NCBI GenBank assembly: GCA_050273025.1
Contig: CP158635.1
Location: forward strand, 7,006,001 to 7,070,000
Length of the DNA: 64,000 nucleotides
Source of the DNA: Cenococcum geophilum
Taxonomy: Eukaryota
Direction: 5' to 3'
Shown here piece after piece: positions 1 to 57,153 of this stretch. Numbering within the stretch: the first letter of the stretch is position 1; each line of letters begins with the position of its first letter. Made by a program: the position numbers and the translations under genes. A model generated the notes under the pieces. It ran no database searches, was not told the DNA's origin, and saw nothing but the letters and a program-made list of their open reading frames with translations.

Positions 1-759
1 GACGTATATACTTAGCGTTAGAGATAGATTAAACGTTATAGGACAACCGCATATTCGCTCGAGTATACTTAGCATAAAAAGAAGGTTAGCAACTAAATGG
101 AGCTGCGATTGTAATATATACTAACTTCTTCTCTATATAACAAGAATAGAACGGTATAACTTTACTAAGTAACAGAATAAACGTCACCAGCTAGTTATAA
201 TAATTAGACGCAGAAGATTTAATAAGAGGCATTAGAAATAATAAAGGTTATTAAATTAAAGACGGGAATGCTATACCTCTAATAAACGACTTAGAGATAG
301 GAGATATCTTTAAAGACAAAGATAAAGAGGAGGGGGATGGTGTTACGGACCTTATATTGGTAGTAGTGCGACTACTAAGGGCAGATATAAATGGGTTAGT
401 TAAGATAGTATAGGAGGAGCTAGAACTAATTAAGCTATAAAATAAAAGGTAGCTAAGTTATATAGCTAGTTATGTTATAAGTTTAGAACGTAGGAACGTA
501 GGAATATGGGAACGCGACGTACTAACGTACTAACGTACCGACGTACTGAACTCTTTATTATAGAGAGGAGTTATATATTTAAGGACACACGGTCTTTATA
601 GATAGTTTCTCTTCCTTATAGTAAATCTTAGAATATAATTAGAGTTAATCTGTTAGGCAACTACTCCACTAGTTATGTTTACGTTGTTAACTATTCTATA
701 CCTACATACCCAGCCCATTAACAAGTCCACCGTAGTATTTCCTACAAGGCTTCGTTATA
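1..759 (+). mobile_element. 3' end of RIP-degraded Ty3/Gypsy LTR retrotransposon (antisense ORF remnant, PPT, 3' LTR 341-759)
   Basis: Polypurine tract GAGGAGGGGGATGG directly precedes TGTTAC at 341. Segment 341-759 is the reverse complement of the LTR at 4413-4824 and is related to the LTRs at 49203 and 56729. Confidence 0.8.
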
Positions 760-2893: not shown

Positions 2894-4824
2894 ATTTCTT
2901 GTTCTATAGTGGAATTATTCTCTACCTTTATTACGTATTCAAGCTTTATATACTTTTAGTTAGTCGCCTATTTCTTCTTATAATTACTGCTAATAGTCTA
3001 ATTATCTTAATTTTTAGATTTTATTGCTTAGTAAAACTAGTATATAAGAACTTTCTCTGTTAACTACTAGCCGTATATACCGTCTTTATTCTAATCTAGT
3101 TTATAAAGTTAATCTTATTCTTTATCTAACTCTCTTATACCCTAAAGTCCTTTTAACTTTAGGCTCTTATAGCTAATAGCTTATACTATACTTAGCATTC
3201 TTATAAACTTAGAATGCGTTATTATAGTAAAACGCAAAACTATTAATTAAACACTCTTTTATTTCTCTATATATATATATTATTTACTAGTCTTATTTCC
3301 TTTACTATATAGTAACTCTAACCACTTCTATAGTCTCTAGCGAAATAACTTTATTTTCTATAGTTTATATAAGTTTCTTCTTTAAGCCATTTTTCTTATT
3401 ATAGAGTTTGCCTAAACGTCTTTTGCTATTAAGATTTCTAATTTAGCCTCTGCTTCTTAGTCCTATAATTACTTAATTTTTAATCTTTAGGTTTTTATAG
3501 TTTCTTATTTTATCTTTTAGATTCTTTAGTACCGCTTAGGTCTATTAGCTCTAGTCCGCTATTTTATAGTTTTTAACTCTAACTATATTGTTACGTGCCT
3601 TGCGCCTTATATAACTATAAAACTCTATTTTATTCTTTCTTAGTTTGTTTTCTTTAATAGATTCTATTATTAATTTTAATTACTTAATTTATAAGTTCCC
3701 TAAGTATATCCGTATCTTTTATTAGAATAATTACATTCTAGACTTTCGCTTTAAGTTCTTACTTATACTATACTATAAGCGCCTTATTATTTTACTTAAC
3801 CTATATAGCTAGTATTTAAAACTACGTTATATACTTAATTGCTAAGGTTTATTATACTATATTTTAAAGCTTTTATTTTACTATAATTATTGCTTTTAAG
3901 TCCCCAAATATTTATATAAGTTAGCTTGTGAATCCTTTCTAGCTTAAGAACATATACTTAACTTCTAGGTTAGTAGTTATGTTTCTATGCTTTTATATCT
4001 TAATAAGATAAGATTCGAAACACTTAAGTGCTCTTTTTATTAGAAATAATTCTGTATAGACTACTTAGTCTATTAATATAGCGAGCTTTGTACTCTCTTA
4101 TATTACCTTAAAGCGCATTTATACTAAAAATCCCTTAAGCTTTAACTTCTCTTCTAAGAATCGCTTAACCGATAGTAATTTAACCTTTACTACTCTGATT
4201 CTATTAATTCGTTCTTTAAGTATTTAATTATTATCTATTAATTAATTAACTATTTCTTGTAATTAACCTACTGTAATAAGCTGTAAGTTAGTATCCTATA
4301 TACTAGTATTCCCACTTATTCTTAATGTGGTTACTACTATTAATGGCGTTATAACTAGTGCTTTTAGTGACATATTACTTAACTTATTAATACTATAACT
4401 AGGTAGTAAATATATAATAAAGCCTTATAGGAAATACTACGGTAAACTTATTAATAGGCTAGGTATATAGGTAACTAATAAGTTAATAATAATAATATAA
4501 CTAGTAGAGTGGTTACTTAATAGATTAACTCTAATTATATTCTAAGATTTACTATAAAGAAGAGAACTATTTAAATAGGGACTGTGGTCCTTTAAATATA
4601 TAATACTGCGCCTAAGAAATATACTAAGCACGTTAGTGCATTAATACGTCAGTATGTTACGTTTCTACGTTTCTACGTTCCGAACTTGTAACGTAACTAG
4701 CCATATAACTTAGTTACCCCTTGTTTTATAGCTTAATCGGTTCTAGCGCCTTTTATACTATCTTAACTAACCTATTTATATCTCTTCTTAGTAGTCGTAC
4801 TACTGCTAATATAAGGTCCGTAAT
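2894..4824 (-). mobile_element. 5' part of RIP-degraded Gypsy element (5' LTR 4413-4824 + gag)
   Basis: Colinear homology with the gag at ~55500-56700. RIP-masked zinc knuckle TYINYRK*SYFARDY (C-x2-C-x4-H-x4-C) at ~3325-3375. LTR matches 341-759. Confidence 0.75.
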
Positions 4825-5521
4825 CTTTTTTCGTTTAGCCTATTACGAAATAAAATAATATTTTACTATTTCTACTAAAGTCTCTACCCACTTAACTTGT
4901 AGTAAGTTATAAAGTATTTACGACAATCTATACCTTTTATTAGATAAATTTATTTACTACCTTAAAGCAATAATAGAAGGTAAATCTATACTAACGACCT
5001 AGGATTTTTTAAATTTCTTATAGACTAAGAACGTATACCACCTTAGTAACTATTAGTCGTATTTAAAACTACGGTACTTATAGATTTATACCTTAAGAAT
5101 ATAAATATACTATTTTATAGTGTTTTCTTTTTATTTAAATTATTTCTCCACTTATTATATATAGAGGTTATTTATCTATTCCAGTATAGTAAGAAGGGGT
5201 AGTTAGGTTACGCGAGGAGGCTTAAACTTATAGCTATACTTATAGGGCTATTTATATAGGAACTTCTCTAAGTATATATAAAGGGGGTTTAGGTTGTTAT
5301 AGGGTTTATAGAGGTCTTTGTATCGGAACTTCGTTAATATTTCTAGATCTAGGACTTATATATTTCTTTTTTTTTCTAGTTCTAGTATTTTCCTAACATT
5401 TTTCTTACCAATTACGTACTGGGCGTGAATTATTAATTACGCACTAGGATGAATAAGTATTCTCCGCTCTAGTTTAAGCAGGGAGGGTTGTGCGAACTAG
5501 GCTTACGAGCTGAAGGTCGTG

Positions 5522-5712
5522 CTGGGTAATCGTCCGAGCTAGGTAATCGTGCGAGCTAGGTAATCGTGAGAGCTAGGTGATTATGCGAGCTAGGAGATCT
5601 TATAGCTAGGCGATCGTGCGAGCTAGGAGATTTTATAAGCTAGGTAATTGTGCGAGTTAGAAAATCGTGCGAGTTAGGTGATCGTGCGAGTTGGGTAATT
5701 GTACGAACTAAG
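5522..5712. repeat. Degenerate 17-bp minisatellite (CTAGGTAATCGTGCGAG-like, ~11 copies)
   Basis: Head-to-tail units with no spacers are visible directly. Confidence 0.85.
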
Positions 5713-6309
5713 GCGGTTTATCTAAGTTCCAGAAAATGATTAGATAAGTGATTAGACGGTGCTACAGTAGGTGTAGTCTATTATTTTATCTAAGGCACTA
5801 AGTCTCTACCCAAAATTAAATACCCCCTTTACCAATACTCTTATAAATATATCTACAACTATATTAAATACAGACCCTAAAGCGAGTTAATAAACGTAGA
5901 GAGGCTACTATAAGATCTCGCTGCCGTCTTTTAATGCCTTTAATAATTACATACCTAGTAAGACAATTGGTAATATATATCCTCTTATCGATTTTAAATA
6001 GACGACCTATACAGCCCAAAATATACTCTAATTACGACGTTAAATTAGTAGAGAGGCCTATTATCGTTCTAGAAAATATCGCGATTATTTAAAATAACGA
6101 GTAATAGGCAAGTTAATTTACTACGTAATTTAAATTCTGTTAAGAAACAAGCTAGTAATAGTAGCTTAAGTCCCTAAACAAAGCCCTTAATCAATTTACT
6201 TTTCTATACCTGGCATTACCGCGGACCTTACCCTAGTGCTAAATATAATATTACAAACCACTCATTTATAAATCGCCCACTCCGCTAACCTCCGAAATCT
6301 TACCTAACC

Positions 6310-28097: not shown

Positions 28098-31000
28098 ATG
28101 TATCTGATTTTTTTACGAATGCTGGCTTTGACCTTCCTTCCAATCTCTACAACCTTGGCTAGAGTTACTAACCGCGTAGATGCACCTGCTGAGCCACTAG
28201 TTGCAGCTCGGATCGCTTCCAAACAAGGTTCTTTGTTCAGCCATCTTCGAAACGTATTTTTCAAACGAGACGAAATCTGTGTGAAGGATGACTTTTATTA
28301 TTACCTACAAAGTAACCCTGAAGCCAACACATTTTGTAATATATGGATCAGTATTCCGCCTGCCACAACGATGGTTGAGTACACATCAACGATGTAAATT
28401 TCCTCTCTTGAAGGTCATATCGCTATTGTATTAACAGCTTATGTAGAACTGCTACAGATATTACAACTACTTCGACAAATACAGTTGTCGATACAGTCCG
28501 GACAACTACTGTGTTTACCGTAACTGCAACCGAAACAGTAGCCATTAGAGCTAAAGAAAAAAGGGAGGATGCTCCAGCTCCTACAGACCCTCCACTTCTT
28601 CGCCGAAATGTTTTGTTGAATGGTATAGCGGCTGTTGTTACCGACGCTATCGGTGGGACCGTTGCCTCTTCCGCGGATATGCCAGCAGGCACCGCTAAAG
28701 CCTCAATTGATGCAGGGCTTTCTAGTGCCTGCTCATGTTTGAACTATCAGCCGCTCTCAACTTTCACTGTAACCTATACTGATTTACCTTATGTAAGGCA
28801 GAAAGAATTATGCTTCTAGGAAAACGACTAATGCTCCGTAGTATACAACACTAGATGCCTTCGAGCAGGACACTCTCACCCTACAATCTACTATCATCCA
28901 GACGTCTTACACAACTCAGACTACCACCCAGACTACGATAATAGGTCTTATGTCTTCCATTAGCTTGGCACCTTCTAGTTCACCGCTCAATTCAACCGCA
29001 TCCGCCGCGACATACGTACCTACGCCTTTGAACAACACTGCGCCAACCAGTTCAGTGCTCATTTCATCATCATCGCTCACCGCAGCGGCGTCTAGCACGG
29101 CTTCCATTGTGACATCCATTACAGTAGCAGGCGGGCCTGGTCGTCCCTCTTCTGAAGCAAGGGCTATTGCTACATCACTTCCAATCTCTTGCCCTCAAAA
29201 CAACAACCAGACAATAACAAATATCATTGGAAATAAGGGGCTTGAATATCTAGTTCTCTGTGGCGTCAATGTCTTTGATAATACCACCATTCTCAGTACG
29301 AGCGTGGCTGGGCCAACCGAATGTGCAGCTGAGTGTTCATTCGTGAACGACGCATTCCAAGAAGATCTGTGTCAAAGCGCTGTCTTCATTCCCGCTGTTG
29401 GTGGCAACGACAACTGTGTTCTCAAAAAGAGTGCAGAGGTGTATGCCCAGACACCTGGATACGTCAGTTTTATCCTCTTGAAAACTTTTGCCGGTGGCAG
29501 CAACTCCACGTGCTCTGCGAACGTATTCGCGGGTGCGAGTAGCTCGGTGGATACGTCCTCGTTGATTGCGTCTATCACTAGCGCTGGTCTGACAGTTACT
29601 CAGCCGCCATACGCTGTTTCTACCGGTGGTGGAGGCCAGTTTTCGACACACTATTCCCATGGTGAAACTGATTCTGCCGGAGTTTACGACTACTCCTGGT
29701 ATAACATAGAAGCATCATCAAGTTCATGGTATTTGAATTATGCATTCTCCTGGACTTGTATTATCATTCACCCTCAAACGATCGTTATCCCTCGAAATGT
29801 GAGGAGTGGGATAGTGGAAGGATCAAGTATGGTGATTGCCGACACGGATATCACGACTATCATCCATGGCTCTACGACCACCATTATCGATGGGGGTAGT
29901 ACAATTATAATAACTAATGTGAACGGCCAAGCCTCTGTACCCGCCTTGGTCACCAGTGGAGGCGGCGTTTTCTCAACAGGTGGATCAAGTTTGGTTATGG
30001 CTTCCCAAGGTGGTTCAAGTGTCATCTCTCCAGCTCCCGTGACTACATTTACCGAAACAGTCACATCCCCAGTTGCCACAGCGACTATTATCAGCATTAG
30101 CACGGCTGTCTCTGGTGGAGCTAGTGGTTCTGGTTTTGGCTTTGGCAATACAACAAGTGTTGCAACGGTTAAGAGTGTGCTTAGTGGTGCGGGAGGCGAA
30201 ACCACTTCTGGTGGTTTCTATAATGTCAATTCCACAGGAGGTGTCGGTGCTATCAGCCCTTCTGCCTCTGCATCGTCGGTACCGAACAAGACTACTTTCA
30301 TCAACAAAAGTGATTTTACTGTTACCTCGGTGATCTCCGGAATGACTTCGTTCTACACTTCCACCGAGCCCCTAGGTGTAGTTAGTACAGCGTCGTCAGG
30401 CCTCACGGCGCTTCTTCCCCCTCCTTCGAATGGCCCAACAGGTCCTGCCAACCAGACAGCTATTGTAATAACTACCGTTATCTCAGGAGTAATTTCAAAG
30501 TACACCTTCACCGGGGGTGGAGGGGTGATCAGCCCTACATCCGAGGGAGCATCTGCATCAACCTCCTCTCTACCCACGAATCAAACCGTTGTCACAGTAA
30601 ATGAGACAACGATTGTCTATACTACAGTAATATCTGGAGCGACTTCAACATATTTGTCTACCGGAGATGTGGGTGTCGTTAGCCCCAGCTCTAGCCTTTC
30701 CATAATTCCAACATCTCTGCCCATCAAGGGAACCTCTGCAATAATCACTGAGACAGTTCAAACATTAACCGCAGAGCCATCGAGTTTTTTCTCAGGCGGC
30801 ACCTCAGGTGGTTTCTCCACAATGAATTCCACTGGCGGCATTGGTGCTACTACCCCTACAATGAGTACTGTGAGCTTGGGTCCTGTTTCGACACTCTCGG
30901 CTATACTGTCCAATGGAACATCCGTGCCCATGAATGGAACGGTTCTGATATCAACAATTGTGCCTTCAGAGGTCTTTTCGGGTGAAACATCAGGCGGGTT

Positions 31001-33335
31001 TTCTACGATGAACTCCGCTGGTGGCATCGGGGTAATAACTCCCCCTGCTTTGAGTCCTTCTACTGCAGCTTCGGCCGTGCCATCTAACGGTACCGCCGCA
31101 TCCATGAACGAAACAGCTTTGATATCAACTTCCATAGTTTCTGGTGGAGTTTCGGGCGTTATCTCAGGGAATACAATAGTGATAAACTCCACCGGAGGTG
31201 TTGGTGTTATAAGTCCAACATCCAGCCAGTCCACGATATATACCCCTACGCCAGTAAATGGGGCCACTGCTTCTCTTAATAAAACAACTTCTGTCACTTC
31301 GATATTCATATCTGGTATTACCACGCTTCTAAGCGCGACCAGCGAAAGTGAAATCCAGCCTCTCCCTTCGGGCAGTCCATCAGTCACACTTAACTTGACA
31401 ATTGCTTCTCCTGAGATAACCACTTTTTCAGGTACCGCTCCTCCAAGTATGGCACCGACACACAGTGTGAATACTTCTACATCTAGTTTCACATTCAGTG
31501 ATCACCCTGACTCTAGAGGCTACAGTCCTGGGTCAGACTCATCCTCAGCCTTCAACTACACGTCAATCGTGGGCACTCGAGTAATTGTTTCTACAATGAC
31601 TCCTTCTGGGACTGCATTTTCTCCCTCGCGTTCAAACTCTATTATTGCGTCAACGGGCACCCCTGTCGTGTTGAACGGTACCACCTCTAGTGAAGCCTCG
31701 TTGACAACACTTCCAGGCTCCAACTCAATTTTCATGGCTGGCACCGGAATCACTAGTCTAATAATCTCCTCGGGAACATTATCGTTGACTCTCGCATCAA
31801 TCTCTGGCAATGGAACTACGGCATTCCCGACCGCGCCTCATTCTAGCAGTTTTACTTTCAATAACGGCGGTGACTCACGTATCGGAATACCTAGCCTTAC
31901 TGAGACACCAACACCTACACCATTTGCAAATCCCACAACGCAAGTTGGCAGTGACTCAATATCAATCTTACCTTCAGCTTCCATTTCAATACCGAACCCA
32001 AACTCAACGATGCCGCTTAGTAGCGGTCCGGTATCAGCGTTACCCTCGACCCCTCTTCCGACTCCATTTGCGAATTTTACAACACCAATCAACACTGGCT
32101 CAGTAATAATCCTATCCTCAAATTCTAGTCCAACTCCATCTGCCAACTTCACACCGCTATCAAGTAGTGGTTCAGCACCAATTCTGTCATCGACTCCAGG
32201 TCTGGTGGCATCTGCAAACTCTACGATGCCACTGGGTAGCGGTTCTGCTCTGACTATCCCATCGACTTCCATTTATGCAGCACCACTGAACTCTACAACA
32301 CTACTCGGTACTGGTTCGACTGAATCTGCTTCGGCACCTTCCCTATTCGAAAACTCAACGGCAGTTTTTGGCGGTGGTTCTATTCCGACCATCCCATCAA
32401 CCTCGATTCCACCATCTTCAACAAATTCCACGGCGTCATCTGGAACTGGTTCCACCATAGCCGCAACTCCAACCCCTCTTCCACCGTCTGCTATGCCTAG
32501 TTCGTCAGGGAATGTCTCAATTAATGTCAACTCTATTTCATCGCCATCATCTTCTCTTATCGCTGGGGTTACCACATCGGCATCGCCGTCCTCTACATCT
32601 ACAGTCTTATCCAACGCAACTAGTTCAAGCGAATGTAGAGGTTCTGCTACTCTATCAATTGAGACTGTGTTCATTACTCACACTGTCCCCGCTTCAACCT
32701 ATTCCTCGGCCGGAGGTTTTTCGTCCCAAACACACGGCCCGATCTCAATCGGTAGTCCATCCACAAATAGCTCCACTTGGTCTGAGCATCGTGTTATTGG
32801 CGAAGTTGCTACACAGGCCCAGATTAATGCTGCGTGTGCTAATAGCGGGAACCTTATTTTCAATGGAGATTTTGAGATAGTCGACGGTAATAATAACGCT
32901 ATCGGCTGGGATTCGTACTCAAGAAGTAGCTTTATTGACTTTGAAGACTATCCATCAACAACACAGCATACACCTGGGGGTTCATACAACGGACGCGTGG
33001 TTAACATAGATCCTGGTGCAAGTGTTTCAATTTGGCAACCTGTCACGCTATGCCCGAATGGCTCATATTACCTGGAAGCGTGGGATCGCCAATACCCGCT
33101 CCTAGCCGAGTGTGTTGTTTCATACGTGCTGGGTAACCAAACAGTGTTCTCGACCAGCCCGCAAGAGGCATGGGGGGCTCAGAAAGTAATTTATACTGCT
33201 GGTGAAACCGCAGCAGCTGTCAGTCTGACTTTCAACATAACGGTCACGTGCTCTGGGCCATCAGGAAAATTATCTGAGGACGTGAATAGGGAAATGATAG
33301 CCGAAATTGACGATTTGAGTTTGATTGCTTTATGA
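28098..33335 (+). CDS. Large (~1710 aa) secreted Ser/Thr-rich mucin-like glycoprotein with Cys-rich PAN/apple-like module and C-terminal carbohydrate-binding-like domain; exons 28098-28393, 28447-28792, 28842-33335
   Basis: Signal peptide, two frame-preserving GT-AG introns, SSACSCL motif, C..ECAAEC..C..C module, many N-x-S/T sites, and C-terminal NLIFNGDFE domain. Confidence 0.82.
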
Positions 33336-42662: not shown

Positions 42663-44719
42663 CTAGGAGGAAATCCAATCTACCACCTCGCGTAGCGAGG
42701 TGGCGTCTCGCTGTCTTAACTCAGGTGGCCTTTCGCTGTTATAATAATCGCGTAATATAGATTTACATAATTAATTACGTAATGTATATTAACAATAGCT
42801 ATTTACATTATCGTTATTATCGTCTTTTTCTTTAAGCAATAGTACTAGCACTACTATTACTACTATCACTACTACCACCGCTACTGCTGCCGCTCCTGCT
42901 TCTGCTCCCACTGCTACTATCACCGCCGCCACTATTACCACTACCATATTACAAAAGCAAAACTTCTGGATATATAATATTGTCCATTTCTATTTAATTT
43001 AGAGGAAGTAGTACCGAAATACTATTTACGGTAGTAACCCGAGACAGTGCAATATAGAGCTAGCCGTGTATAAAAACCAGTATCCGTAAATCAACGCCTA
43101 TAAAGTTAAAAGACTAACCCTATAACTTATTTACGGTCATTATAAAAGATAAACGGATAGGAAACTGCCGTTAATTAATAATAAACGGTAGCTTACCTTC
43201 CGTAAAAGACAGTATAATCTACAGGATAACCTATAGCTGGTTAGCGAAGGTGCTACTAAGAATATGGGCTTTAAGACAGCAGCGGCCTATCTGGGTAAGA
43301 ACTATACGGGTACTGTTATAGAGGCCCTCTTTAGGATATAGGTTCCGTAAAAGGATTATTAAAGCGCTAACCTTAAGGCAGAGCTGTGTGGAAGAAAGGT
43401 ATATAGGGTTAAAGCTCTATAAAAGCTTTAGGGGGAAAGTACTTTCGGTATTTAGATCGTCCTATTATATAGTATCTATAGAATAAAAAACGGACTTAGG
43501 GCTATTAAGAAAGTAGAGGATGGTGTTATTAATAGTAGCAACAGTGTCGTTACGGATAGTTAAGATAGCACGGCTGTAGAACGTATAGAGATTAGTATAC
43601 GCCTACTGTAAAAAAGTGGGAGGGTAAACGGAGTTGATAAAAGGCTATAGACTGGTAAACTAGGCGATACTAATAGGTAACTAGATACGACTAGTAAGAG
43701 TAGGGTTATAAGAAAGACTACAGACCTAGGTAGTAAAGTATTAATTTAGCTCGCCGTTTAAAACGCGGATATTCTAGCGTAGCGATAAAATACGGAGGGA
43801 AGGCTATAAGAAGGACTGCCGTAAGTAGGCCGCAATAACATTAGCATAGGTCCCCCGTTTTATAACAGGGAGAATCTAAGCAAAATTACTACCTAAAATA
43901 ACGCGAACGCCGCTAAAAGGAGCCTAGGTATTAGAACGGACGTCTATAAGTATATAGTGCACAGCTTTAAAGCAGTAACGGTGCTATATTAGCACTTTAT
44001 CCTAAATTATAAGGGCAATAGAGCGCAGTAACTACGCTAGCTAGGAGTCTTTAGGTACGTTATATACGGATTCCTTATATAAATTAATAGGAATACAAAA
44101 ATAGGAGTGGGTAGTTCGGCCGCCAGGTAGTAAAAGGGCAGATATGCTAGAAGAGGCGATATAAAGAACAATGCGGCCGCGAGAGCGGTAGTAGTGGCAG
44201 ATATAGCGGTAAAGAAAGGTTTTACTGGTGCCTATAGGGCCCTATAGGAAAAAACGAGCGTTCTGCGGGTCTGTATCTATAGTAGTAGTAACTATAGTAA
44301 AGTAGGCAGCCTAGTTAGAATTTAGCTAGGAACGCAGCTCTGTAAAAAGGCGGCCTTCCTTAGTAGTGCTATAATTAAGCTCTATAGTAATAAGCGGGTT
44401 ACTATCTATAAGGTCCTAGCGGTGCTGTAGTAAAGGCAGAAAGTAATCTATAAGAGTTTTGCTATAGTCTGTAAGCACCCGCTAGATAAGATATAGGCTG
44501 TAATCCAGATATACATCGTTAATACTACCTAGAAGATTAGGCCGACGCTCTAAAACATAAGGGAGATTATTATAGAGAGACGGCTTAAATTTCGCCTAAA
44601 GGGTAGGAGGGTCGCTTACGGGGCTATAGACTAAAGAAGTTATAAAAAGAGACCGCAGCTAGGCGCTAGTAGCGAATACGGATACTTCCTATAGGCAGTT
44701 AACCCACTCTTAGTTATTA

Positions 44720-45738
44720 GTAGTAAGTTCTTTAATTAACGTCTAATACGGATCCTATCTAGGCCCACGCAGACTACTCTATACATAAGGGAAACTTATA
44801 AATTAATAAGAAGAAAACCCTTGTTGATATAGGGGACGGAAAAACCCTATGAGCCACCTCAGTAGGATGAAAAACCCCTGTTTTGCCATGTCCGTCCGTA
44901 GCGGCGGCCCTACGGGCCTACGGCTACGTCCTGTCCTCCTTAGATAATTTAAACTCCTTAGGAACCACTGCTTCCTTCTCTAGCTTATCTAAAGCTAGGG
45001 TTCACTACGTCCTAGCTAGGCCTTACCAATCGATTGCTATGCTTATAGTTGTGTCCTGTATCTTAACCACCCCCTATATGCTATCTCTTATTAACCATTA
45101 CTATATACGCCATGCCTCCCCCCCCCTAGGCCTATTAAAGGCGTAAGGGGGATTTATCCGCTTTAACTACCTAATACTAAATAGCGAGCGGGATGTGTAT
45201 GTGTGTACTCTGGGTATCTTTTATGCCTAGGCCCTGGTTGCTAGGCCCTCTCTAAGGGTTACCACTCCATTAAGAGGAGACGAGGAAAACCATGTCTTAT
45301 GATCCGGCTGCCAGTTAGTACGGTAGTAAGGCGGCGAGTAACCGCATGCTCCGCGGGCGATTGCCCTAGGGGTTAGGAGGGGCCGTATATTTGCTCGTTC
45401 GTTCGTTCGTTCACGTTTGCTTATTTGTTAATATAAGGTCGTTAATGCTTTCTACTAGGGGACGGGGGATAATATCGAATACCGCGCATCCATGTTAGAT
45501 CGTATAGGTGCCCTAGATAGGAGAACAGCGTAGTAGTCGTCGTATTGTAGAGAGCCAACAGTAGTAGTTTTTAAGATCTTACCATCTAAAAAATTTTCAC
45601 CACCGCCCTTAACGCCTACAACCACCACCGGTCCTATCCGCACGCTGTGCGACGTCTCTGCGTTGGCTCTAGATCTGAACTTCGAAGACCAGGTTCGTAG
45701 CCGTCACCACGTACAGGTGCAGAGTCCGATTTCGACGG
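44720..45738 (-). mobile_element. Non-autonomous non-LTR retroposon (SINE/SIDE-like, ~1019 bp) inserted in the Helitron
   Basis: 17-bp direct repeat CCCACTCTTAGTTATTA at 44703-44719 and 45739-45755. The Helitron frame rejoins on removal. The 3' end is ...CTTACTAC (TAC-type tail), and no convincing protein-coding ORF is present. Confidence 0.85.
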
Positions 45739-45740
45739 CC
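45656..45740 (-). ncRNA. Candidate HDV-like self-cleaving ribozyme at the retroposon 5' end
   Basis: Manual fold: P1 GGCCGUC/GACGGCU (G1-U wobble), P2 CUCUGC/GCAGAG, P3 ACC/GGU, L3 UGUACGU, P1.1 GU/AC, P4 CUGG-UCU/AGA-U-CUAG, J4/2 GCCAA(C); 85 nt. Confidence 0.72.
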
Positions 45741-48700
45741 CACTCTTAGTTATTATTAAGGAGCCCTAAAACCATATAAGCGGCTTAAAAGGTTAGGTAA
45801 ATAGTACTAGCGATAGTACGGAGGTACTTAAAAGAGGTAGCGCCAGAAATAACGGTAAGTAGCAGCTATAAATAATACCGTTTGCTAGTAATGGGGCTAC
45901 AGTAATATATACGGCCGATAATAGTATCCTTTAGGCGGACGTAGCGCTACTATTAGCGTATTTTTGCTATAAAGGTATATCTATAAGGGAAGTCCTAATA
46001 AAGCGTAGCACGACCATCCGCATTTTTAGAGTTGTACTAAAACTAAGCAGTTAAAGTTAAATAGGCTATTTTAAGATGCTGTTATAGGTCCTTTATAGAC
46101 TTATCTAGCTAAAAATAAACGGGCTATTAGCCGGGAAGGTATACGGTAAGCTATATTATGGGGGGGTATTCCTTATAAACTAGGAACTTAAATAGCCGCC
46201 AGACGGCCTCTATAGGGCCAATATATTTGCTATAAAAGTACCTACTAATTTTGTCGTTATTATTTAAGAGCTATACGGTTGTTTAGTTAGTCCCCTTATA
46301 AATATACTTATAGATATACTTTACGGCCTATACGAAGGTATAGACCTCGACGTTAATATAGGCCCTATACTTTACGCTAAAATAGGGATTGTATAGTATA
46401 ACCTAGCGGTTATTAAGGTTTATAGTAGTACTATTACCGCCTAGTATACGGACAGGCTATAACCGTAAATTATTACGGCGGTAATACTAAGGGTAACTAT
46501 TGTTATGTACGGCCATTGCGGGGCAGAATGGCTTTAGAAATCGCTTTAAGTAGGTTAGCGGACGGCTATAAGTACCAGCAACTATATAGGGGGCGTTTAG
46601 GTTATTAGTACCGTAAGGCCTATAGACTATTATAGTCTGTATAATATTGGTAAGCCGTCTAATAGGGTTATCCTAAGGCTATAGGAGCTCTATAGATACG
46701 TAATAGTTAATAACTATAAGATCTATTAACATATTACGGTCCTCCAGATGTAAAAAAAGAAGAAGGTAAAGATGTAGTAGGCACCGTTTTTAATATTTAA
46801 TAGTCTAAACGCAGCTAAGAAATCTACTAAAAATCTAGTTTTTCTTAAGGTTATATAGAAGGTGGATAACCTTTATATAAAAGACACGGGTAACCAAATT
46901 AGGGTGGTTAATAGCGGTTTAGAAAGGTAAAAGTTTATAGGTAATTTCGTCCTACTATAAATTGGCCATAAAAGTAATAAATAGGCTTAGACGGCCGTAA
47001 TGGCGGACTATTACTATAGAATCTTAGTAGCACTGGCCGATAAAGCGGGCGCTGCTAAGGTAACTTAAAGGAAGAATAACGCGGTGGCTAATAAAATTAG
47101 GGTTAAAATTTCTGTAAGAGATAGTATCCATAATACCGTTATATAGGTCCGCATGGATATTAGACTGGTAAAAACAGATCTAGTTAAGCTTATTCTGGTT
47201 ATATAGGGCTTAGGCATTAATAATATACTACTAAAATAGGCGCCGAAAGGCGAACGGCACTAATTTAGAGCTGTTATAGACGTAAAGGTAAAACTAAAAG
47301 TAAGCTCGCTAGGGAAGGCGGTTATACTAGCGGGTATAGGAATTACTATAGAGCTACATACCCCAGTGCCAGCTAGGGTTGCTATAAGGAAAGAGTAGCA
47401 CGTAGTATAGCGGTATATAGGTAGCATAGTTTAAGTTAATACGGTAGTACCGCGGGGGCTCCTTAAGCTAGCTATGGTTAGTAAGAATAATATTGCGGAA
47501 GCTAGCGCTTTTATACTTATTAGGAATAATAATAGCAACCTTAGTAGCCGTAGGTAGATTTTTACGGCGCCAATTAGCGCCCGCCTTAACGATTAGCTAT
47601 ATTTATAGGTTTAGAATAATCCGTAACGGAGTAGACGTAGCTTACGCCTACGCCTACGCCTAAAGCCGTTCTATGGCGGTTTGGTATAAAGTAATAAAAG
47701 GATTGCTAATCTTATATAGCATATCAGTAAGACGCCGTAAAACCTCTATATTAAGCTACGGATTAGTCTATAGACAGATATTAATAGCGTAGGTAGGGTT
47801 GTAAAAGTAAAGCTAAGTATATTAAGGTATAGCTTTAGAGGGAGCTTCTATAGGCCTAGTAAGGTGGTATAATTCGCTATAAATCTAGAAACAATTAATA
47901 CCGGCCGAAGTAGCGCCACAATTAGTAATAGTGTAGTTAATAGAGGTAAAAGCCAAAGCCGTATTATATAAACGGAGCTAGTTCTAAAACGTACGGGTAA
48001 AGCGTTCCCGGGACTGTAGTAGGGTCTATAAATACTACGGCAGGGATCTAAATAAAGGTAAGATAATATTGCCTTACTTACAGCAGCTCTTAAAGTAAGG
48101 CTATTTAGCCTACGTAGAACCAATCCGTTTATCTATTTAGTATAAAGCTTAGCAGTAATTATAGGCTGTATTTATAGGCCTAATATCTAACTAGTCTATA
48201 ATAGGGTGGACTATAATAATAGCGGCTATACTTATAGGCCTAATATCTAACTAGTCCGTAATAGGGCGGGCTATAGTAGGTTATAGCTAGATTAATACGG
48301 GTGGTATAAGGAGGCGGGAAGTAGAGGAAGAAGTAGTAGCGGAAGTAGCGGTAGAAGCAGCGGTAGGCTGCCAAAGGTCTGCTAAAGATCGTCAGGACCG
48401 CCCCTTTCTTTTCTCCTATATATAGAGAGTTAGAAAGGCAATTAAAAAGAAGGGAAAAAAGTATTAACCTTATAAGGTTTACAGGTCTTATATAGAGCTC
48501 CAAGACGGTTCGTTGCAAAGTCAGTAAAAGAGCGATACTGCTTATAGGCAGTACAAAATATGTAATTAGAAGGCATTTCGGAGGTAGGCAGGGAGTAGTA
48601 TATTAGTAGTAGGTAGGGTATAGTAAACAGGGGGAAGATAGAGAGCAGTAAGGGGTAGAATTTAAAATTTAATAGGGTAGCACGTAAGGGAATCAGGTGA

Positions 48701-49202: not shown

Positions 49203-52200
49203 TGTAACGGAACCTTGTAGCAAGAACTACGGTGGGCTCGTTATTAGGCTAGGTGTGTAGGAAATGCAAGTACAAAAGTCAACAACGTAATAACAACTAG
49301 TGGAGTGGTTGCCTAATAGATTAACTCCAATTATATTCTAAGAATTACTATAAGGAAGGAACTATCTAGGTAGGGACTAAGGGTCCTTAAATACACAACC
49401 GTACTCCTAAGAAAGTTATTACTTTATTTGCTCTGTCTGCTCTGTTTACTCTATAATAGATCTTATAGATTATATAGATTATACAAATTATATTACATAA
49501 CTCTACTTACCATTCCTTATTATATGGTTCTACGGGTTCTATCTTAGACCGTACTTATATTAACTAACTAGCTTCTTCTAACTTCTCTCTAAGTAGTCGT
49601 AATATTATACTTAAAGCGTTTATAATACTATCTCCCTCCTTTCTATCTTTGTCCTTAAAGATACCTAGCATCTCTAGGTTATTTACTAGAGGTATAATAT
49701 CCGTCTAATTAATTTAGTTAATATTATTACTTATAATGCCTAAAGCACCTTCTTCTTCCTCTATAGCCCGTTGGTCTTATACCATTACTATAATATTATC
49801 TCTTAGTAAGATAATGCCATCTCCGTGTTCTTATTATATAAAAGAAGGGCTAGTTTACATTACGTTGGCGAGTCCTTTGTCCCGGTAACCTTCCTCTTAT
49901 TTAAAGTATACTAAAGCGAATATTCAGTTATCCTGTAACGTTCGCTCTATCTCTAATATTAAATATACGCGACCTATTACTCTTAATAGTCGTCTAGTTC
50001 CCTAATTAATTTGTTTTAGGGTCTTATGTTTAATCCGAGGCAGAAAGACTTAAGGGTAATCTTGCCGCAGCGCTGGCGGAAGCCTATTATTAATCCGAAG
50101 AATCTGCTCGTGCCCTTAAGGCTTAGCAGTCTGCCTTTATAAAAGTTTAGCGTCTTTAACGCGTTTATAAGAAGGTTTGCTTTAAGGAGTAGAAACTTAT
50201 AGAATAAGGTCTATAGGAACTAGGTAATAAAAGAACGGATTCTCTTCTAATAGAGAAGGAAATAGATCTAAGTAGTTCGGCAACTGCTCTTCTTAGGTCC
50301 CCCTTAGGTAACTTATTCTTTAGCGATCCTTCTTTATTAATACTACCTAACCTAATCTCCTCCGATACTCCTGTACCTTTTTTATAGCATTTTTTAAATT
50401 CTCTAGTAGCTCCTAGGTAGTCTTAGTATAGCCTATCCACTTAACCTTATACTATATCTCGTTATTAATATTCTTATAATTAATAATCTTTAATACTTGC
50501 CATTTATCTTCTTCTTGTCCTCTATATATGTCTGCTTTATAAACTAGTAGCTTAATATTTCTATATACTGGCTCTAGCATTACAATATACTATATAGGGT
50601 AGATCTTCATTTTAGCTGGTAGGTTTAACTTAAATGTAACTAGTGAAATCCTTTATATAATTTTAAAAGGTCTTAGTCTAACACAGTCCAATTTCTTACT
50701 TAGTCGTTAACTCTTAAAATTTTTATGTAGTAGCTATACTTTATCTCCCTCCTTAAGATCTGGTCCCTTAGATCTCTTAGTATTATAGTACTTTTTTATT
50801 CTCTCTTATACTTTCTTTACTAATTCCATAAGGTCTATATAAAGATTTATTAATATCTTTATTCTCTCTTTAGCTATACTACTTATTTTCTTTACTTGCT
50901 GTAGTAATAACAATATTCTTAGCTTATATCCGTAATTTACCTTAAATAGTAATATGCCTATTCCTTCTTAAGGTGTTATATTATACGCAAACTGTATAAC
51001 TAGTAACAGTAATACCCAATTATTCTATGCATAATTAACATAATGCCTTAGATACTATTCTAGCGTCTAATTTAATCTTTCTATTTAACCGTCTATCTAC
51101 GGATAATATGCGGTAGAAGTTGCTGCTTAAACTCCTTGCTCCGCTAAAAACACTTCCTAGAATGCTGCTACGAATCTTAGATCTCTATCTGATATAATTT
51201 TGCTTAGTGCTCCATGTCTTATAAACACTTCTTTAATATAGATTTTAGCGATATCTTCTACTAAGATTTCTTCCGTATATGCTATAAAGTATCCCCACTT
51301 TATAAGCTTGTTTACTATTACTAAGATTATATTATAATCTTATCCAGTAATAGGATCTTTTAATTTTAGTAACTTAATAATAAAGTCCCATAATATAACC
51401 TCCTATAGTCTCTCTAGTATTTTAATAGGTTATAGCCCTCTATATAGCTTATATCTTATCGGTTTGTTCCTTTAGTAATCTAGATATTCCTTTATAACCT
51501 TTCTAGCTATCCTCTAGATTCCGTTAATAATATACTCCTCCTAGAGTCTCGACACTAAGCCTATAGCTTTATTATATCCTTAAGTTAGTCCTTTATAGAA
51601 GTCCTCTATAAATTACTCTGCTATGCTTCTTAGGATATACTTTACTTCTTAATTTTCGTATATATCTATCTGTGGATCTTCTAGCTATACTTCTAGAATT
51701 CTTTATGCCTAAAAGCTTTCTAATATCTTATAAACTTTCTCTAATTCGTCGTCTTCTTAAGTTACTATAATTTTTGGATGATTATACCTAATTAATCCGT
51801 CTGTATCTTTTTGCAATAAAGCCCCTAATAGCTTTTCCTTATTTTATAGTTTAGCTTTACAGCTTAGAGCATCTACCCACGTATTATCTATACCTTTAGT
51901 ATACTAAATCTCAAAATAGTATTCCGTAAGCATCTCTACCCATCTAACCTGTCTTTGGTTAAGTTCCTTTATTATTAGGAATCCTATTAGGTTCTTATAA
52001 TCCGTCTTAACCATAAATAGTTTTTCTATGCCTTATAAGAATACTCTCTATTCCTTTAATGCTGCAACTATACCTAATAACTCCTTATTATAGATGTTAT
52101 AGTTTAACTCTAGTGGTATTATCTTCTAACTATAGTATGCCACTAGGTGCTATCTATCTTAATGCCTTTATATAAAGCACGCCCCTAGTATATAGTCTAA

Positions 52201-55200
52201 TATATCTATTTTTACAACTATCTCTAGTTTTAGTTAATAGATCTTAAGAACTAGCTCCTAGGTAAATAACTCTTTAACTTTCCTAAAGAGTTCTCTTTAC
52301 TCTTCCCCCTATGCCTATAGTTCTTCTTTCTTTATTAACCGCGTAAATAGCTTAATGTCCTTTAACCATTACGCTATAAACCTTTTATAGTAATTGTAAA
52401 ACCCTAGGAACAATCTTAACTATATAACGTTCTCTAGTTCCTACTAATTTACTATAGCCTTAATCTTCTTTAAATCTATACTAAGTTAGCCTAGTTTAAT
52501 AATAAATTTAATAAAATCGGTCTTCCTGGTAAAGAACTTATATTTCTTAATTACTACTAGTATCTATTCTTCTTGTAGTCTCTTTAAGACCCATTTAATA
52601 TATTCCCCGTATTCTTCCTTAGTTATTAAGTAGATAATAATATTATTAAAATATACTATAACAAATTTATCTAAGTATTCTCCTAATATATTATTAATAC
52701 GCTTTTAGAACGTTACTAGTGCGTTTATAAGCCCGAATTGCATAACCAATAGTTTATATAGTCCTTTCTTTAACCTAAAGGCTGCCTTCTATTTATCGCC
52801 TTCCTTAATCCTAATTTAATGGTACGCCTATCTTAGATCTATCTTTATAAAGATTTGCGCATTGCCTATCCTATCTTAGATTTTGCTAATTAAGGGTAAA
52901 GGATACCTATCCTTCCTGGTAATGCTATTTAACTATCTATAGTTAATACACAGCCTTAGTTTACTATTCTTCTTTAGTATAAACAGTACTAGATAACCTG
53001 CTAATAACTGCGATGGTCTAATATATCCCTTTTATAGATTTTCCTAGATAAACTCTTTTAACGCTCTACCTTCTTCTTCAGTAAGCTTGTAGATTGGAAA
53101 GAACTTTAGACTTATTCCTAGTTCTAACTCTATTTTATAGTTCTATGCTATATATTCTAATAGCTTCTTACTTTCCGGTAACTATAGTTTCTTACCGTAC
53201 TTATAGTATCTCTTTAGTATATAGCTTAGTCCTTTTTCTGTTTCTTTATAGGTTGCTCCTACTTAGTACTATACTAACTTAGCTTATTATTATATCTTGC
53301 GGCATTAAGTATCTCTAATATCGACCTAACCTGTAATCTAATTAATCCTCGGATTATATTCCTATAACTAAGGCATACCTAATACTGCCTCGTCCCGTCC
53401 TAATAGTAGGATATTAAAAGACATCTTAATTTATCTTTCTTTAATAGTTATCTAAATAGGTCCTATTTTAAGACTAATAATCCCTCCTCTATAGGTTATT
53501 AGATCTCCTAAAATTATAACTAATAGGTAAGGTTACTTCTTTTATCTATAAGGTAGCCCCATTCTCTTAACTACTGCTAGTAAGATATAGTTTTACGTTA
53601 CTCTACTATCTATTAGCGCTTTAAACTACTAATCTTACTAATTAATCTGTAAATTTAGGTATTATCCTTAAATTCCTTTAAAGGTCTAAGGCTTTACCAC
53701 TAGCTCCCTCTAGTCCTATAGGCCTCTACTTTTTCTAACTATTAGCTACTTAATCCTAGTATACTTAGCTCGCTTTTTAGCTAATACCTAGTTCGCTTTT
53801 TATCTTTAATATACTATAGATATATATTTTCTAGGCATTCCTACTACTGTCGTCCGTCTAAGTATTTTTCTATAAGGAATCTTCCTAGTTAAAGTACTAA
53901 ACTTCCTTCCTCTTAGATTTCTATTGGATGCTATCCGTGTATATATTTAGCATTCCTATACTATTACTTATCCGTCATCTAGTACATCCTTATAGGGTAT
54001 TTCTAATTCTTTTCTTTTGGATTCTTATATATTTTATATATATCGTCTATGTACGCGATCTATAATAACGTGTGGTATACTAGGTACTTTAGGTTAACTC
54101 TTAGCTTATCTTTATCCTTAAGTTTAAACCTTTATTATACTAATCTAAACGTTACAACTTTATTTATAGGTACTAAGATGCGCCTCTTACTTCTCTAGTC
54201 CTCTAAATATTCCTTTAGATCCTTTAATGTTATAATTAAGGCTCCTTTAATATACGTTATAGCCTTCTCTATAATTAGGTGGTCCTAGATAACTTTTTTA
54301 TCCAACTATATATAGAAATCTTCCTACTTATTATTATGCCTTTGCCTATACTACTTTTGGTACAGCTGCTAGAGTATATATAGTCTATCTATAAGGAAGT
54401 ATCTTCTTATTGCTATATTGTGACAGCCTTTTATATATCGTTCCTCGAACCTAGTTAAAATCCCTAAATCCTCTTTATCTTCTAGTTTAGTAAGCCACTT
54501 AGCTCTTAGTATGCCTGCTCTTAGCCTATTAGTGATTCTTTATACTAGTGCTCTGTCCTTTATACGTCCTAATGTGCTAGATCTCTTATCTAGTTTCTAT
54601 TCTTACTATATGATAATTCTTTACCTAAACTCTTTTATAATTTCTTTTAGTTTACGCCTTATGCTCTAATCCTTAAAGTTATCTTACTTCTTAATCCTAG
54701 TATTAACTTTTTAATCTTTAGTCTAAACACTTTATTTAACTAGTAAATCCTCTAGGTCTATATATTCGTCTCTTAGTCTAATTACTATTTATGCCGCAGA
54801 TTCTCTAATCTATAAAGAAGCCTCTGGCCTCTTATCTGTGGGTGTCCTAATTTATACCCTAAATTCTTAACCCCTTAGGTTCTTTAATCCCAAGCTTGCT
54901 TCTGACTTAAGCTTAGCTTTAGCCTTAGTCCAACTAGGCTTACTTAGTGTCCTTATCTTGTCTTAAGAGTCCTAGATCTTACTTATCTTATCTTAAGAAT
55001 TTTATGCTATTAGGAATTCTTATCCCGAGCTTATTTATATGTCTTTAAACTAAGCCGCTACTTTACTCTATCGGTTTCTGTTCGTTGTGGGTTCTTAAGC
55101 TTACCTTATCTTATCTTAAGAATCTTAGTTATCTCTTATCTTATCTTAAGAATCTTAAGCCTTTGGCCTTTTGCCTTTATTAAGTGCCGAAGTAGTTTAC

Positions 55201-57153
55201 TATCCTACTTCTCTTACATCTCGTAAAGCAATAGACATTATATCTAGTGGGGTTTCGATCCCTACTAATATTCCTTATTCTATACTAGAATTATCCTCTA
55301 CCTCTGGTATAATATCTCTAAGGTCTACTCGCTTTTAGTAAGCGGCCCTTATTGCCTTATTATTACGGAATGTTTCGCCTAGGTTAAATTTATCGTCCTT
55401 AATATCTAATCTGCGAACTAGTTCGTTAGTTCCTTTGCATTTTATAGGTACTAGCTCTTATAGCTAATAGCTTACGCCATACTTAGCGTCCTTATAAATT
55501 CGGCATACGTTATTATAATAAAATGTAAAACTTCTAATTAAACATTCTTTTGTTCCTCGCAGTATATTATTATCCCTTTATACGTATATATCGTCTACTA
55601 GTCTTATGCCTTTTACTATATAGTGACTCTACCTACTTCTATAGTCTCTAATATAATAACCCTATTTTCTGTAATTTATGTAAGCTCCTTCTTTAAACCA
55701 TTTTTCTTACTATAGAGTCCGCCTAAATGTCTTCTACTATTAAGATCCCTAATTTGGCCTCTACTCCTTAGACCTTTAATTACTTAATCCTTATCCTTTA
55801 AGTTTTTATAGTTTGCTCCCTCTTTTATAGGCTTCTTTAGTACCACTTAGGTCTATTAGCTCTGCGCCATACCATAGTTTCTAACTTAGCTTTTGTTATT
55901 ACGTACTTTGCGCCTTATATAACTATAGAACTCTATCCTAGCCTCTTTTAGCCTGTTCCCTCTAGTAGATTTAATTATTAATCTTAATTACCTAATCTAT
56001 TAGTTCCTTTAGGGTATCCGCATCTTCTATTAGGATAATTACATCCTAGACTTTAGCCTTAAGTCCCTATTTATACTATGCCATAAGCGCCCTATTATTC
56101 CACTCTACTTATATTACTAGTGTCTAGAACTATATTATATACTTAATTATTAAAGTTTATTACACAAGGTTCTGGAGTTTTTTTTCTGCTATAGTTATTT
56201 CTTCTAGGTTTCTAAATATCTGCGTTAGTTGTTCTGCGAATCCTTTCTAACTTAAGAATATAAATTGCACGTCTTAGTTAGTGGTCGTTATTCCGTTTAC
56301 CTATATCTCTATAAGGTAAGGTTTAAACCACTTAAGTGCTTTTCCTAATAAGAATAGTCCTATATAGGCTATCTGATCCACAGGCGTAGGTAACTTTGCT
56401 CCCTCTTATAAGACCTTAAAATGCATCTATATAAGGAATCTTTTAAGCTTTAACCTCTTTCCTGTAAATCTCTTAATTAATAGTAGCTTAATCTTTACTG
56501 CTCCTATCCTATTAAGTCTTTCTTCCAATACTATATTATTAGCTATTAGCTAGTTAACTATTTCCTATAGCTGTCTAACCGTCACAGGTTGCTGTAAGTC
56601 AGTATCTGCTATACTGGTGTTACCTCCTGTCCTTAAAGTAGTTGCTGCCGTTAATGGCGTTGTGGTGGCTGCTTTTAGTAGCATATTATTCGACTTCTTA
56701 TATTAATACCGTAACTAGGTAGTGATTATATAACGGAACCTTATAGTAAGAACTACGGTGGGCTTGTTATTGGGCTAGGTGTATAGGAAATGTAAGTATA
56801 AAAGTTAACAACGTAATAACAACTGGTGGAGTGGTTACCTAACAGATTAACTTTAATTGTATTCTAAGAATTACTATAAGAAAGGAACTATTTAGGTAGG
56901 GACTAAGGGTCCTTAAATACATAACCGTACTCCTAAGAAAGTTATTACTCTGTCTGCTCTGTCTGCTCTATTTGCTCTGCGATAGATCTTATAGATTATA
57001 CAGATTATACAGATCACATCACGTAACTCTGCTTACTATTCCTTGTTATATGGTTCCATGGGTTTTATCCTGGACCGTGCTTATATTAACCAACTAGCTT
57101 CTTCTAACTCCTCTCTAAGTAGTTATAACATTGTACTTAAAGCGTTTGTAACA
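49203..57153 (-). mobile_element. Full-length RIP-inactivated Ty3/Gypsy chromovirus
   Basis: 425-bp LTRs at 49203-49627 and 56729-57153 (outer ends TG..CA). TSD AATAC/AATAT. RT motif FVIVYFNNIIIY (YxDD after RIP), integrase, and chromodomain YKVKWIGYTKTT*ELLENLKNA. Confidence 0.93.
49736..50430 (+). pseudogene. Antisense extra ORF of the Gypsy element: Zn(II)2Cys6-like motif, probable intron and coiled coil (RIP-damaged)
   Basis: MPKAPSS..PCSYYIKEGLVYITLASPLSR*PSSYLKYTKANIQLSC, with TAT/TAC at the Cys positions. Acceptor TTTTAG at ~50019 is followed by a helical EAERLKGNLAAALAEA segment. The end is approximate. Confidence 0.6.

Follow-up and report, generated by a model that had tools for sequence, protein, structure and literature searches.

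Ribozymes of the hepatitis delta virus (HDV) type are established at the 5' ends of the retrotransposons R2, RTE and baggins and of their non-autonomous derivatives, as described in the available text of PMC6765202. The Pr77 head of L1Tc and NARTc in Trypanosoma cruzi is an HDV-like ribozyme as well, according to the available part of PMC3185411. For fungi, the available text of PMC5640933 counts 11 canonical HDV-class ribozymes from earlier work and, in 26 species, 230 variants, of which two cleave in vitro; it describes "widely variable gene associations" for the variants, and the word retrotransposon occurs in it 0 times. Here we analysed a stretch of 64,000 nucleotides from Cenococcum geophilum (assembly GCA_050273025.1, contig CP158635.1, positions 7,006,001 to 7,070,000 of the forward strand), which is called the window below and in whose numbering all positions are given. 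A Helitron on the minus strand of the window carries an insertion of about 1 kb. This insertion is likely a copy of a high-copy, non-coding retroposon that depends on a long interspersed nuclear element (LINE) for its mobility and whose HDV-like head sets its 5' end.

The first-pass annotation, made from the letters alone, had proposed an insertion of about 1 kb with a 17-bp target-site duplication (TSD) that splits the Helitron. A repeat search found CCCACTCTTAGTTATTA as an exact 17-bp direct repeat with a spacing of 1036 bp (19/20 identical when extended to 20; Table 1), and 1019 bp are inserted between its two copies. On the minus strand the order is flank, TAATAACTAAGAGTGGG, element, TTACTAC, TAATAACTAAGAGTGGG, flank. 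The 3' end of the element (...TTACTAC) directly abuts the 3' TSD copy, and its first two nucleotides, G1G2, overlap the 5' TSD copy; the TAC-type tail and the 2-nt overlap claimed earlier are thus both real. In a Pfam scan with stops read as X, a Helitron_like_N domain (PF14214, E 3.9e-23) and a PIF1 helicase domain (PF05970, E 1.2e-42) were found on the minus strand at the two sides of the element (approximate limits in Table 1). The insertion therefore separates Rep from Hel, and it has the same orientation as the Helitron, which is degraded by repeat-induced point mutation (RIP).

Twenty public sequencing runs contain part of the element, and four of them (X1, X5, X15 and X21) were aligned to 44300-46150. 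Contigs of X1 and X15 contained joints from 44710 to 45747, in which 1036 nt were skipped, that is, the element and one TSD copy. These joints are the unoccupied insertion site. Together with the exact repeat and the domain map, they confirm the proposed insertion. In both DNA runs, the summed contig depth in 44734-45725 exceeded that of the flanks by a factor of 10-100. The Helitron flanks (44300-44700 and 45790-46150) are also multi-copy, with a contig depth of 1500-4400 in X1 and many RIP-type transition variants. No second copy of the element was found in the 64 kb of the window.

A metagenome scan was performed with a pattern that fixed only J1/2, L3, the two 3' nucleotides of P1.1 and J4/2 of the fold described below and left the long helices free. 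It found at least 120 further loci; the family counts given here refer to the matches listed. The upstream flank was unrelated up to an identical first base (G1, at 45740 in the window) in 120 of 120 copies. In X1, 25 contigs align up to 45740 and continue into AT-rich sequence that differs from contig to contig, and 16 do so in X5. The first-pass annotation had named copies beginning elsewhere as a result that would speak against it, and none was seen. The first heptamer was GGCCGTC in 82 copies, GGTCCTC in 24 and a single-transition variant in 14. A full-length copy of about 1.0 kb was present at nearly all sufficiently long loci, with 73-87% identity to the window copy. Four loci (L017, L025, L066 and L096) match the element for about 180-250 nt and continue with unique or other sequence, which is not that of a LINE. 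In L017, the first ~185 nt of the element are followed by sequence (GC 0.42) without a match in the 120 listed loci and the window; a deletion of the 3' part, a rearrangement or chimeric retrocopying may account for it.

TSDs could be tested in 61 copies, for which the sequence reaches 25 nt or more upstream of G1 and 1.1 kb or more downstream of it. A flank repeat of at least 8 nt was detected in 51 of them and none in the other 10. TSDs of 11-19 nt (mode 14-15) were present in 47/61 copies versus 0/61 control flanks taken from 400 nt upstream, and TA was their usual start. In 39 of the 51 copies, G1 was the first base after the repeat; in six the repeat reached one or two nucleotides into the element (the microhomology seen in the window copy), and in six it stopped 1-16 nt short of G1, of which two are probably spurious 8-mers. 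Among the 47 copies with a TSD of at least 11 nt, 35 had (TAC)1-5 tails, eight had A/T-triplet repeats and four had other tails. The subfamily-A consensus has no sense open reading frame (ORF) of at least 40 aa that starts with ATG, and the median longest sense ORF of the 61 copies was 39 aa. The TSDs, the tails, the fixed 5' end and the lack of coding capacity are the features expected when a non-coding RNA is copied by target-primed reverse transcription. Our results support that the element is a non-coding, high-copy retroposon mobilised by a LINE.

The 3' ends of the family gave a lead to the partner LINE. Four 3' ends in the listed loci had no element head 1 kb upstream. One of them (L035) is the continuation of its own full-length copy, and the remaining three are part of a second repeat, which is 920 nt or longer (L016 1-919, L011 4048-4956 on the minus strand, L023 4461-5070, and L015, L020 and L051). 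The second repeat resembles the element in the last 70-85 nt only, with 84-88% identity to copies with A/T-triplet tails (Table 1 for the window copy). In L023, an RVT_1-like stretch lies about 600 nt upstream of the second repeat with a sub-threshold score (16.2 bits, E 0.0091, cut-off 29.6). Other extents of the second repeat were L023 3511-5072 (RVT_1 at ~3630-3873), L011 4048-5068 (minus strand), L015 1074-1558 and L020 91-437 (minus strand). Judged from this arrangement, the second repeat may be the 3' part of a degraded partner LINE. The shared 3' end would fit the type of sharing seen between short interspersed nuclear elements (SINEs) and LINEs, and we regard it as a lead and not a demonstration. 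In all, the variable TSDs, the (TAC)n tails, the lack of a conserved ORF and a 3' end common to a repeat with a sub-threshold reverse transcriptase match support the LINE-mobilised, non-autonomous family that the first-pass annotation had proposed. In the literature searched, nothing usable was found on (TAC)n tails of fungal LINEs, which the first-pass annotation had ascribed to the Tad clade.

The first 85 nt of the element satisfy an HDV-like nested double-pseudoknot descriptor, in the order P1-J1/2-P2-P3-L3-P3'-P1'-P1.1'-P4-J4/2-P2'. All of the pairings proposed earlier are present in the sequence (Table 1). P1 has 7 bp and is closed by G1.U, P2 has 6 bp, and P3 has 3 bp around a 7-nt L3 that keeps U...CG. 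P1.1 is formed by nucleotides 2-3 of L3 and the two nucleotides after P1 as GU/AC, which gives one G-C and one U-A pair and not two G-C pairs. J4/2 contains the candidate catalytic C at position 75, followed by N-A-A, and P4 is a regular hairpin in the window copy. The descriptor was loose and was written after the candidate was known; on both strands of the window it matched one locus, the candidate at 45740. When the same descriptor was applied to 420 kb of loci plus the window, 77 family copies were found versus two unrelated matches and one diverged extra copy (L070). Subfamily-B copies fail the descriptor because of a mismatch in P1. No second HDV-like family was found in the 420 kb of loci and the window, the two unrelated matches being at chance level.

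The head was also compared with 4227 Rfam families (45640-45760, 121 nt, laxer filters, hits at E ≤ 10). The only matches were RF02682 (HDV-F-prausnitzii; 13.5 bits, E 1.7, 45656-45740) and RF01787 (drz-agam-1; 12.9 bits, E 2.3, 45653-45740), each over the full model. Both families are HDV-like and both matches begin at 45740. One of the two alignments covers P1 and P3 and the other P2 and P3; Rfam models do not score pseudoknot pairs. GCCAA is aligned to GCUAA of the model, so that position 75 holds the candidate catalytic C. Two neighbouring 121-nt control stretches gave no HDV match, nor did a scan of 2.5 kb, for which the filters were stricter than at 121 nt. In a subfamily-B copy, RF02682 was among three matches, with 10.4 bits. 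The weight of this result lies in the fact that both chance-level matches fall in one small class and in the predicted register, which gives independent support to the fold. The covariance-model check suggested for 45640-45760 in the first-pass annotation thus gave HDV-like matches from G1, although below the gathering thresholds.

In the control scan, the stretch 45551-45614 on the minus strand (element nt ~127-190) gave five weak Rfam matches, all of them to C/D-box small nucleolar RNA families and four of them on the element sense strand (best ceN22, 16 bits, E 0.6, gathering 45). In this stretch, CUGU of subfamily A is replaced by CUGA in subfamily B. It may represent a kink-turn-like motif or chance.

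A classical SINE, with a head derived from tRNA, 5S or 7SL RNA and with internal A and B boxes that direct its transcription by RNA polymerase III, is non-coding, high-copy and precise at its 5' end like this family, and TTCGAA near +55 to +60 stands roughly where we assume a B box to be. ARAGORN detected no tRNA-like gene in 44600-45900, and no tRNA, 5S or 7SL match was obtained in Rfam at E ≤ 10. These two negatives largely refute such a head. Moreover, the element is about 1 kb long, TTCGAA is not kept in subfamily B, and the window copy has a T6 run near nt 150, which would stop RNA polymerase III. We consider this explanation highly improbable.

The variation among copies was analysed in a head alignment of 121 sequences, 71 of them distinct. 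Standard pairs were found in 96.8% of pair cells, versus 31-45% when the partners were slid by 1-3 columns. Hence the copies keep the pairings, as the first-pass annotation had expected; the slid control flatters the structure, because the structure was derived from one aligned sequence. Only differences between subfamilies are informative, because dead copies drift without selection. The closing pair is G1.U in 67/71 distinct sequences and A-U in 3/71, and the pair C45719-G45661 is C-G in 69/71 and U-G in 2/71. Subfamily B (25 of the 120 listed copies, 24 with GGTCCTC and one with GGTCCTT) has GGUCCUC/GAGGCCU as P1. At pair 5-38, subfamily A has G-C and the 17 distinct B sequences have C-G; this swap was not made by RIP, because it is a pair of transversions.

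P4, the variable peripheral helix of HDV-like ribozymes, occurs in several forms. The commonest has a bulged U (CUGG-UCU / AGA-U-CCAG). In a form with one inserted G, the former bulged U is paired as G.U; in a further form it is changed to C, which gives a perfect 8-bp stem, and another form has a second inner helix. In subfamily B the stem is another one, of 9 bp and often with a UUCG loop. Compared across subfamilies, these forms show an RNA hairpin that appears to be kept by selection at the P4 position. No loop E motif, taken by us as AGUA/GAA, was seen in the P4 region of the window copy. A single transition (C>T at position 70) sets the window copy apart from the commonest head; through it, one G-C pair of P4 has become G.U. 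The second copy in L070 (1-810, minus strand; 74% identity), which BLAST detected and the scan pattern did not, keeps L3 and J4/2, its J1/2 is one nucleotide longer and its P4 is CUAAGU/ACUUAG.

The head might alternatively be a relic, that is, an HDV-like ribozyme by descent that was inactive when the family spread, with the 5' end coming from a master transcript that started there by other means. An A-U pair in P1.1 in the place of two G-C pairs, the P1 mismatch of subfamily B and a J4/2 that is one nucleotide longer than in HDV would all suit a relic. On the contrary, the core is kept between subfamilies that are 18% apart. Between the consensus sequences of A and B, identity is 82% over the element as a whole and reaches 92% in columns 1-50 (in which J1/2 and L3 were fixed by the search) and 94-100% in several 3' blocks, a pattern that reads as a mosaic. 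P4 was repaired by compensatory changes, and L1Tc works with a P1.1 of 1 bp (available text of PMC3185411). A relic is therefore rather improbable.

The family is transcribed. In the raw reads of the RNA run X21, the depth of first mates was 3427-5240 on the plus strand versus 41-44 on the minus strand in the bins covering 45478-45663, and zero in both flanks. By the usual library design, this bias of about 100:1 would correspond to minus-strand RNA, the sense strand of the element. RNA depth was confined to 44734-45787. The summed contig depth in X15 was up to 462,426 and the read depth in X21 up to 5,240, which shows that the family is abundant in RNA libraries. Indels of the subfamilies were visible in X21: 360/1806 reads had the extra base of the A2/A3 type behind 45688, and 1068/2478 lacked a base at 45638 as in B. 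X21 reads were mostly less than 90% alike to the window, and 64% of the aligned X21 material continued into unlike sequence; expressed copies therefore differ from the window copy. Joints 45258 to 45332 and 45512 to 45582 were found in RNA reads only, and may be subfamily indels or processing.

In the mechanism that we propose, RNA would be made in the sense direction (minus strand of the window), either from a promoter of the element or by read-through. Its first 85 nt would fold as an HDV-like nested double pseudoknot and cut immediately 5' of G1. Because of this predicted cut, every mobilised RNA and every full-length DNA copy would start at the same base, regardless of what lies upstream. 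The 3' end, with the conserved 70-85 nt and a (UAC)n or A/U-triplet tail, would be recognised by the reverse transcriptase of the partner LINE, which would reverse-transcribe the RNA in a target-primed reaction at TA-rich sites and leave TSDs of 11-19 bp.

Several results weigh against a ribozyme at the head. Shuffled windows contained 0.57 descriptor loci per window (at least one match in 26/60 shuffles), so that the fold alone is not beyond chance, and the non-pseudoknotted fold is no more stable than that of shuffles (z +1.03), the minimum free energy (MFE) being uninformative for a pseudoknot. The Rfam scores are far under gathering (13.5 versus 44 and 12.9 versus 37 bits) and are not significant alone. 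P2, P3 and P1.1 are constant or change in one strand of the helix only and for this reason carry no covariation evidence, and the constancy of L3, the 3' part of P1.1 and J4/2 is no evidence because the search pattern fixed them. RIP transitions on both strands can mimic a covariation of G-C to A-U, as seen in the second L070 copy. Pair 3-40 is a U x C mismatch in 17/17 distinct B sequences, and the 5' ends of B copies are as precise as those of A copies despite it; either P1 tolerates the mismatch in subfamily B, or U3 bulges with a slip of register. The covariation test proposed in the first-pass annotation was thus answered in part: P4 and pair 5-38 are compensated, while the core is thin and pair 3-40 is broken in B. 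The RNA ends pile up at 45728 and not at 45740, 502 X21 molecules ending there at an adjacent depth of 1287. This pile lies 12 nt inside G1. Libraries of this kind usually lack about 10 nt at the 5' ends of RNAs, and the pile is compatible with an RNA end at G1; it fixes neither the position nor whether the end comes from a cut or a start site. In X15, one RNA contig of 1149 nt (record 10) may extend past the 5' end. Finally, none of the 61 loci that extend 1.1 kb or more past G1 showed an autonomous element with this head, nor did any of the listed loci contain a full-length LINE that carries it.

The main rival is an internal RNA polymerase II promoter in the first ~100 nt that fixes the 5' end, as in many LINEs; the HDV-like fit would then be a coincidence or serve a different role, for instance in protein binding, RNA stability or translation. 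A start site equally predicts a precise 5' end and sense RNA confined to the element, it agrees with a descriptor at chance level and with sub-threshold Rfam scores, and it leaves subfamily B free to spread with a mismatch in P1. In L1Tc, the same 77 nt are promoter and ribozyme (available text of PMC3185411); because Pr77 does both, a promoter role is plausible here and leaves room for cleavage. What goes beyond chance, in our estimate, is that a fold with all helices, G1.U, the U..ACGU loop and C-N-A-A in J4/2 starts at nt 1, at the element end fixed by the TSD (~4.5e-6 per position, ~1e-5 for the three positions that the TSD allows). A promoter alone predicts neither this nor the Rfam result, in which the sole two matches are HDV-like and in register and two control stretches have none. 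The compensatory changes in P4 and pair 5-38 act at the RNA level, and 39 of 51 copies have no extra nucleotide between TSD and G1. We therefore regard a promoter without cleavage as unlikely and a 5' end set by an HDV-like ribozyme as the favoured explanation.

The coordinates of the features are collected in Table 1. The AT-rich blocks of the window (28-39% GC) contain the Helitron and, at ~50566-56474 on the minus strand, a RIP-degraded Ty3/Gypsy long terminal repeat retrotransposon with RVT_1, RT_RNaseH, SH3_Tf2-1 and weak Ty3_capsid matches (stops as X). No LINE was found in the window, and 1-6000 had no Pfam match. The part with normal GC encodes a PF16944 "Fungal potassium channel" protein, a P450 and other genes in the Pfam scan. 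An open frame of 1497 aa at 28842-33332 on the plus strand had no Pfam family at E ≤ 0.001.

Table 1. Features of the retroposon copy and its host Helitron in the window.
Feature	Position	Strand	Basis and remarks
Retroposon copy	44720..45740	-	G1 = 45740, 3' tail ends at 44720; 1019-1021 bp depending on assignment of the 2-nt microhomology; TSD, full-length alignment of copies, DNA and RNA depth
TSD copy, element 5' side, 17 bp	45739..45755	.	last 2 nt = G1G2 of the element
TSD copy, element 3' side, 17 bp	44703..44719	.	exact repeat, empty-site joints
3' terminal region and (TAC)2 tail	44720..44793	-	common to the second, reverse transcriptase-associated repeat family; 76.5% identity between 44714-44793 and the 3' end of L016/L011
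Putative HDV-like self-cleaving ribozyme, nt 1-85	45656..45740	-	predicted cut 5' of 45740; descriptor, RF02682/RF01787 alignments, pair counts
P1 5' strand GGCCGUC (G1.U closing)	45734..45740	-	sequence, descriptor, pair counts
P1 3' strand GACGGCU	45699..45705	-	sequence, descriptor, pair counts
P2 5' strand CUCUGC	45719..45724	-	C 45719 alternatively an extra nucleotide between P2 and P3
P2 3' strand GCAGAG	45656..45661	-	P2 also in MFE and centroid folds
P3 (ACC/GGU) and L3 UGUACGU	45706..45718	-	GU of L3 pairs with AC 45697-45698 as P1.1; most of the sequence match to RF02682/RF01787
J1.1/4 GAAC, P4 hairpin (CUGG-UCU ... AGA-U-CUAG) and AG	45667..45696	-	P4 pairing kept in four sequence forms among subfamilies
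J4/2 CCAAC	45662..45666	-	candidate catalytic C 45666, aligned to C of GCUAA in RF02682
Host Helitron Rep (Helitron_like_N), RIP-degraded	46757..47266	-	Pfam
Host Helitron PIF1-type helicase, RIP-degraded	43750..44307	-	Pfam

The mechanism itself is known; the new details are the fungal host, the non-coding element with a (TAC)n tail and the A-U pair in P1.1. The head is compatible with the HDV fold as the first-pass annotation had claimed, and its label of a variant HDV-like ribozyme was pitched too high, HDV ribozymes in fungi having been published already (PMC5640933). In the literature on HDV-like ribozymes in fungi, as far as its available text goes, no fungal retroposon with such a head is described; the head may already be listed within the alignments of PMC5640933. 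If it cleaves, fungi would join animals and trypanosomes as hosts of retroposons whose 5' end is set by an HDV-type ribozyme, and at least part of the catalogued fungal HDV-class ribozymes, whose spread lacks an explanation, would gain a role. Tentatively, the family might be the first recognised ribozyme-capped, LINE-dependent fungal retroposon, and many fungal HDV-class ribozymes might be such 5' caps, which would explain their numbers and their "widely variable gene associations"; the head would then tolerate both an A-U pair in P1.1 and the mismatch that one subfamily has in P1, and might double as a promoter like Pr77 of L1Tc. Subfamilies that differ in P1 and P4 offer natural variants for the tolerance of the HDV fold to such changes, in a family that is abundant and transcribed. 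For annotation, Rfam thresholds miss heads of this kind, and a fold search anchored on ends defined by TSDs can detect them.

Compared with L1Tc and NARTc of Trypanosoma cruzi, the head likewise occupies the first ~77-85 nt with a cut at +1, which is shown there and predicted here (PMC3185411, available text). According to the same text, NARTc is a non-autonomous, non-coding element with the same head, which cleaves at +1, and the insertions are dispersed. In contrast, the fungal family only shares its 3' 70-85 nt with a reverse transcriptase-associated repeat, and no autonomous element with the same head was found; L1Tc and NARTc carry a poly(A) tail in the place of (TAC)n and live in another host kingdom. 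In R2, RTE and baggins and the R2-derived elements of animals, a 5' ribozyme frees the RNA from a co-transcript and defines the 5' junction, and hundreds of copies with conserved downstream and differing upstream sequence are described as well (PMC6765202, available text). R2 is site-specific in ribosomal DNA, whereas the fungal family is non-coding and inserted at many TA-rich sites with TSDs of 11-19 bp.

The variant HDV ribozymes of fungi, as given in the available text of PMC5640933, belong to the HDV class, occur in filamentous fungi and are many per genome. They have C-G at the cut site, in contrast to G1.U in the retroposon head, and their P4 is partly a loop E, whereas P4 of the retroposon reads as an ordinary hairpin flanked by GAAC and AG. 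They also have an extra nucleotide, usually C, between P2 and P3; C45719 of the retroposon can be read in this way or as paired with G45661. Compared with RF02682 and RF01787, the retroposon has G-C and U-A pairs in P1.1 and a longer J1/2 and P4, and it agrees with both in the register, the ACC/GGU of P3, the U..(A/U)CGU loop and G-C-N-A-A in J4/2.

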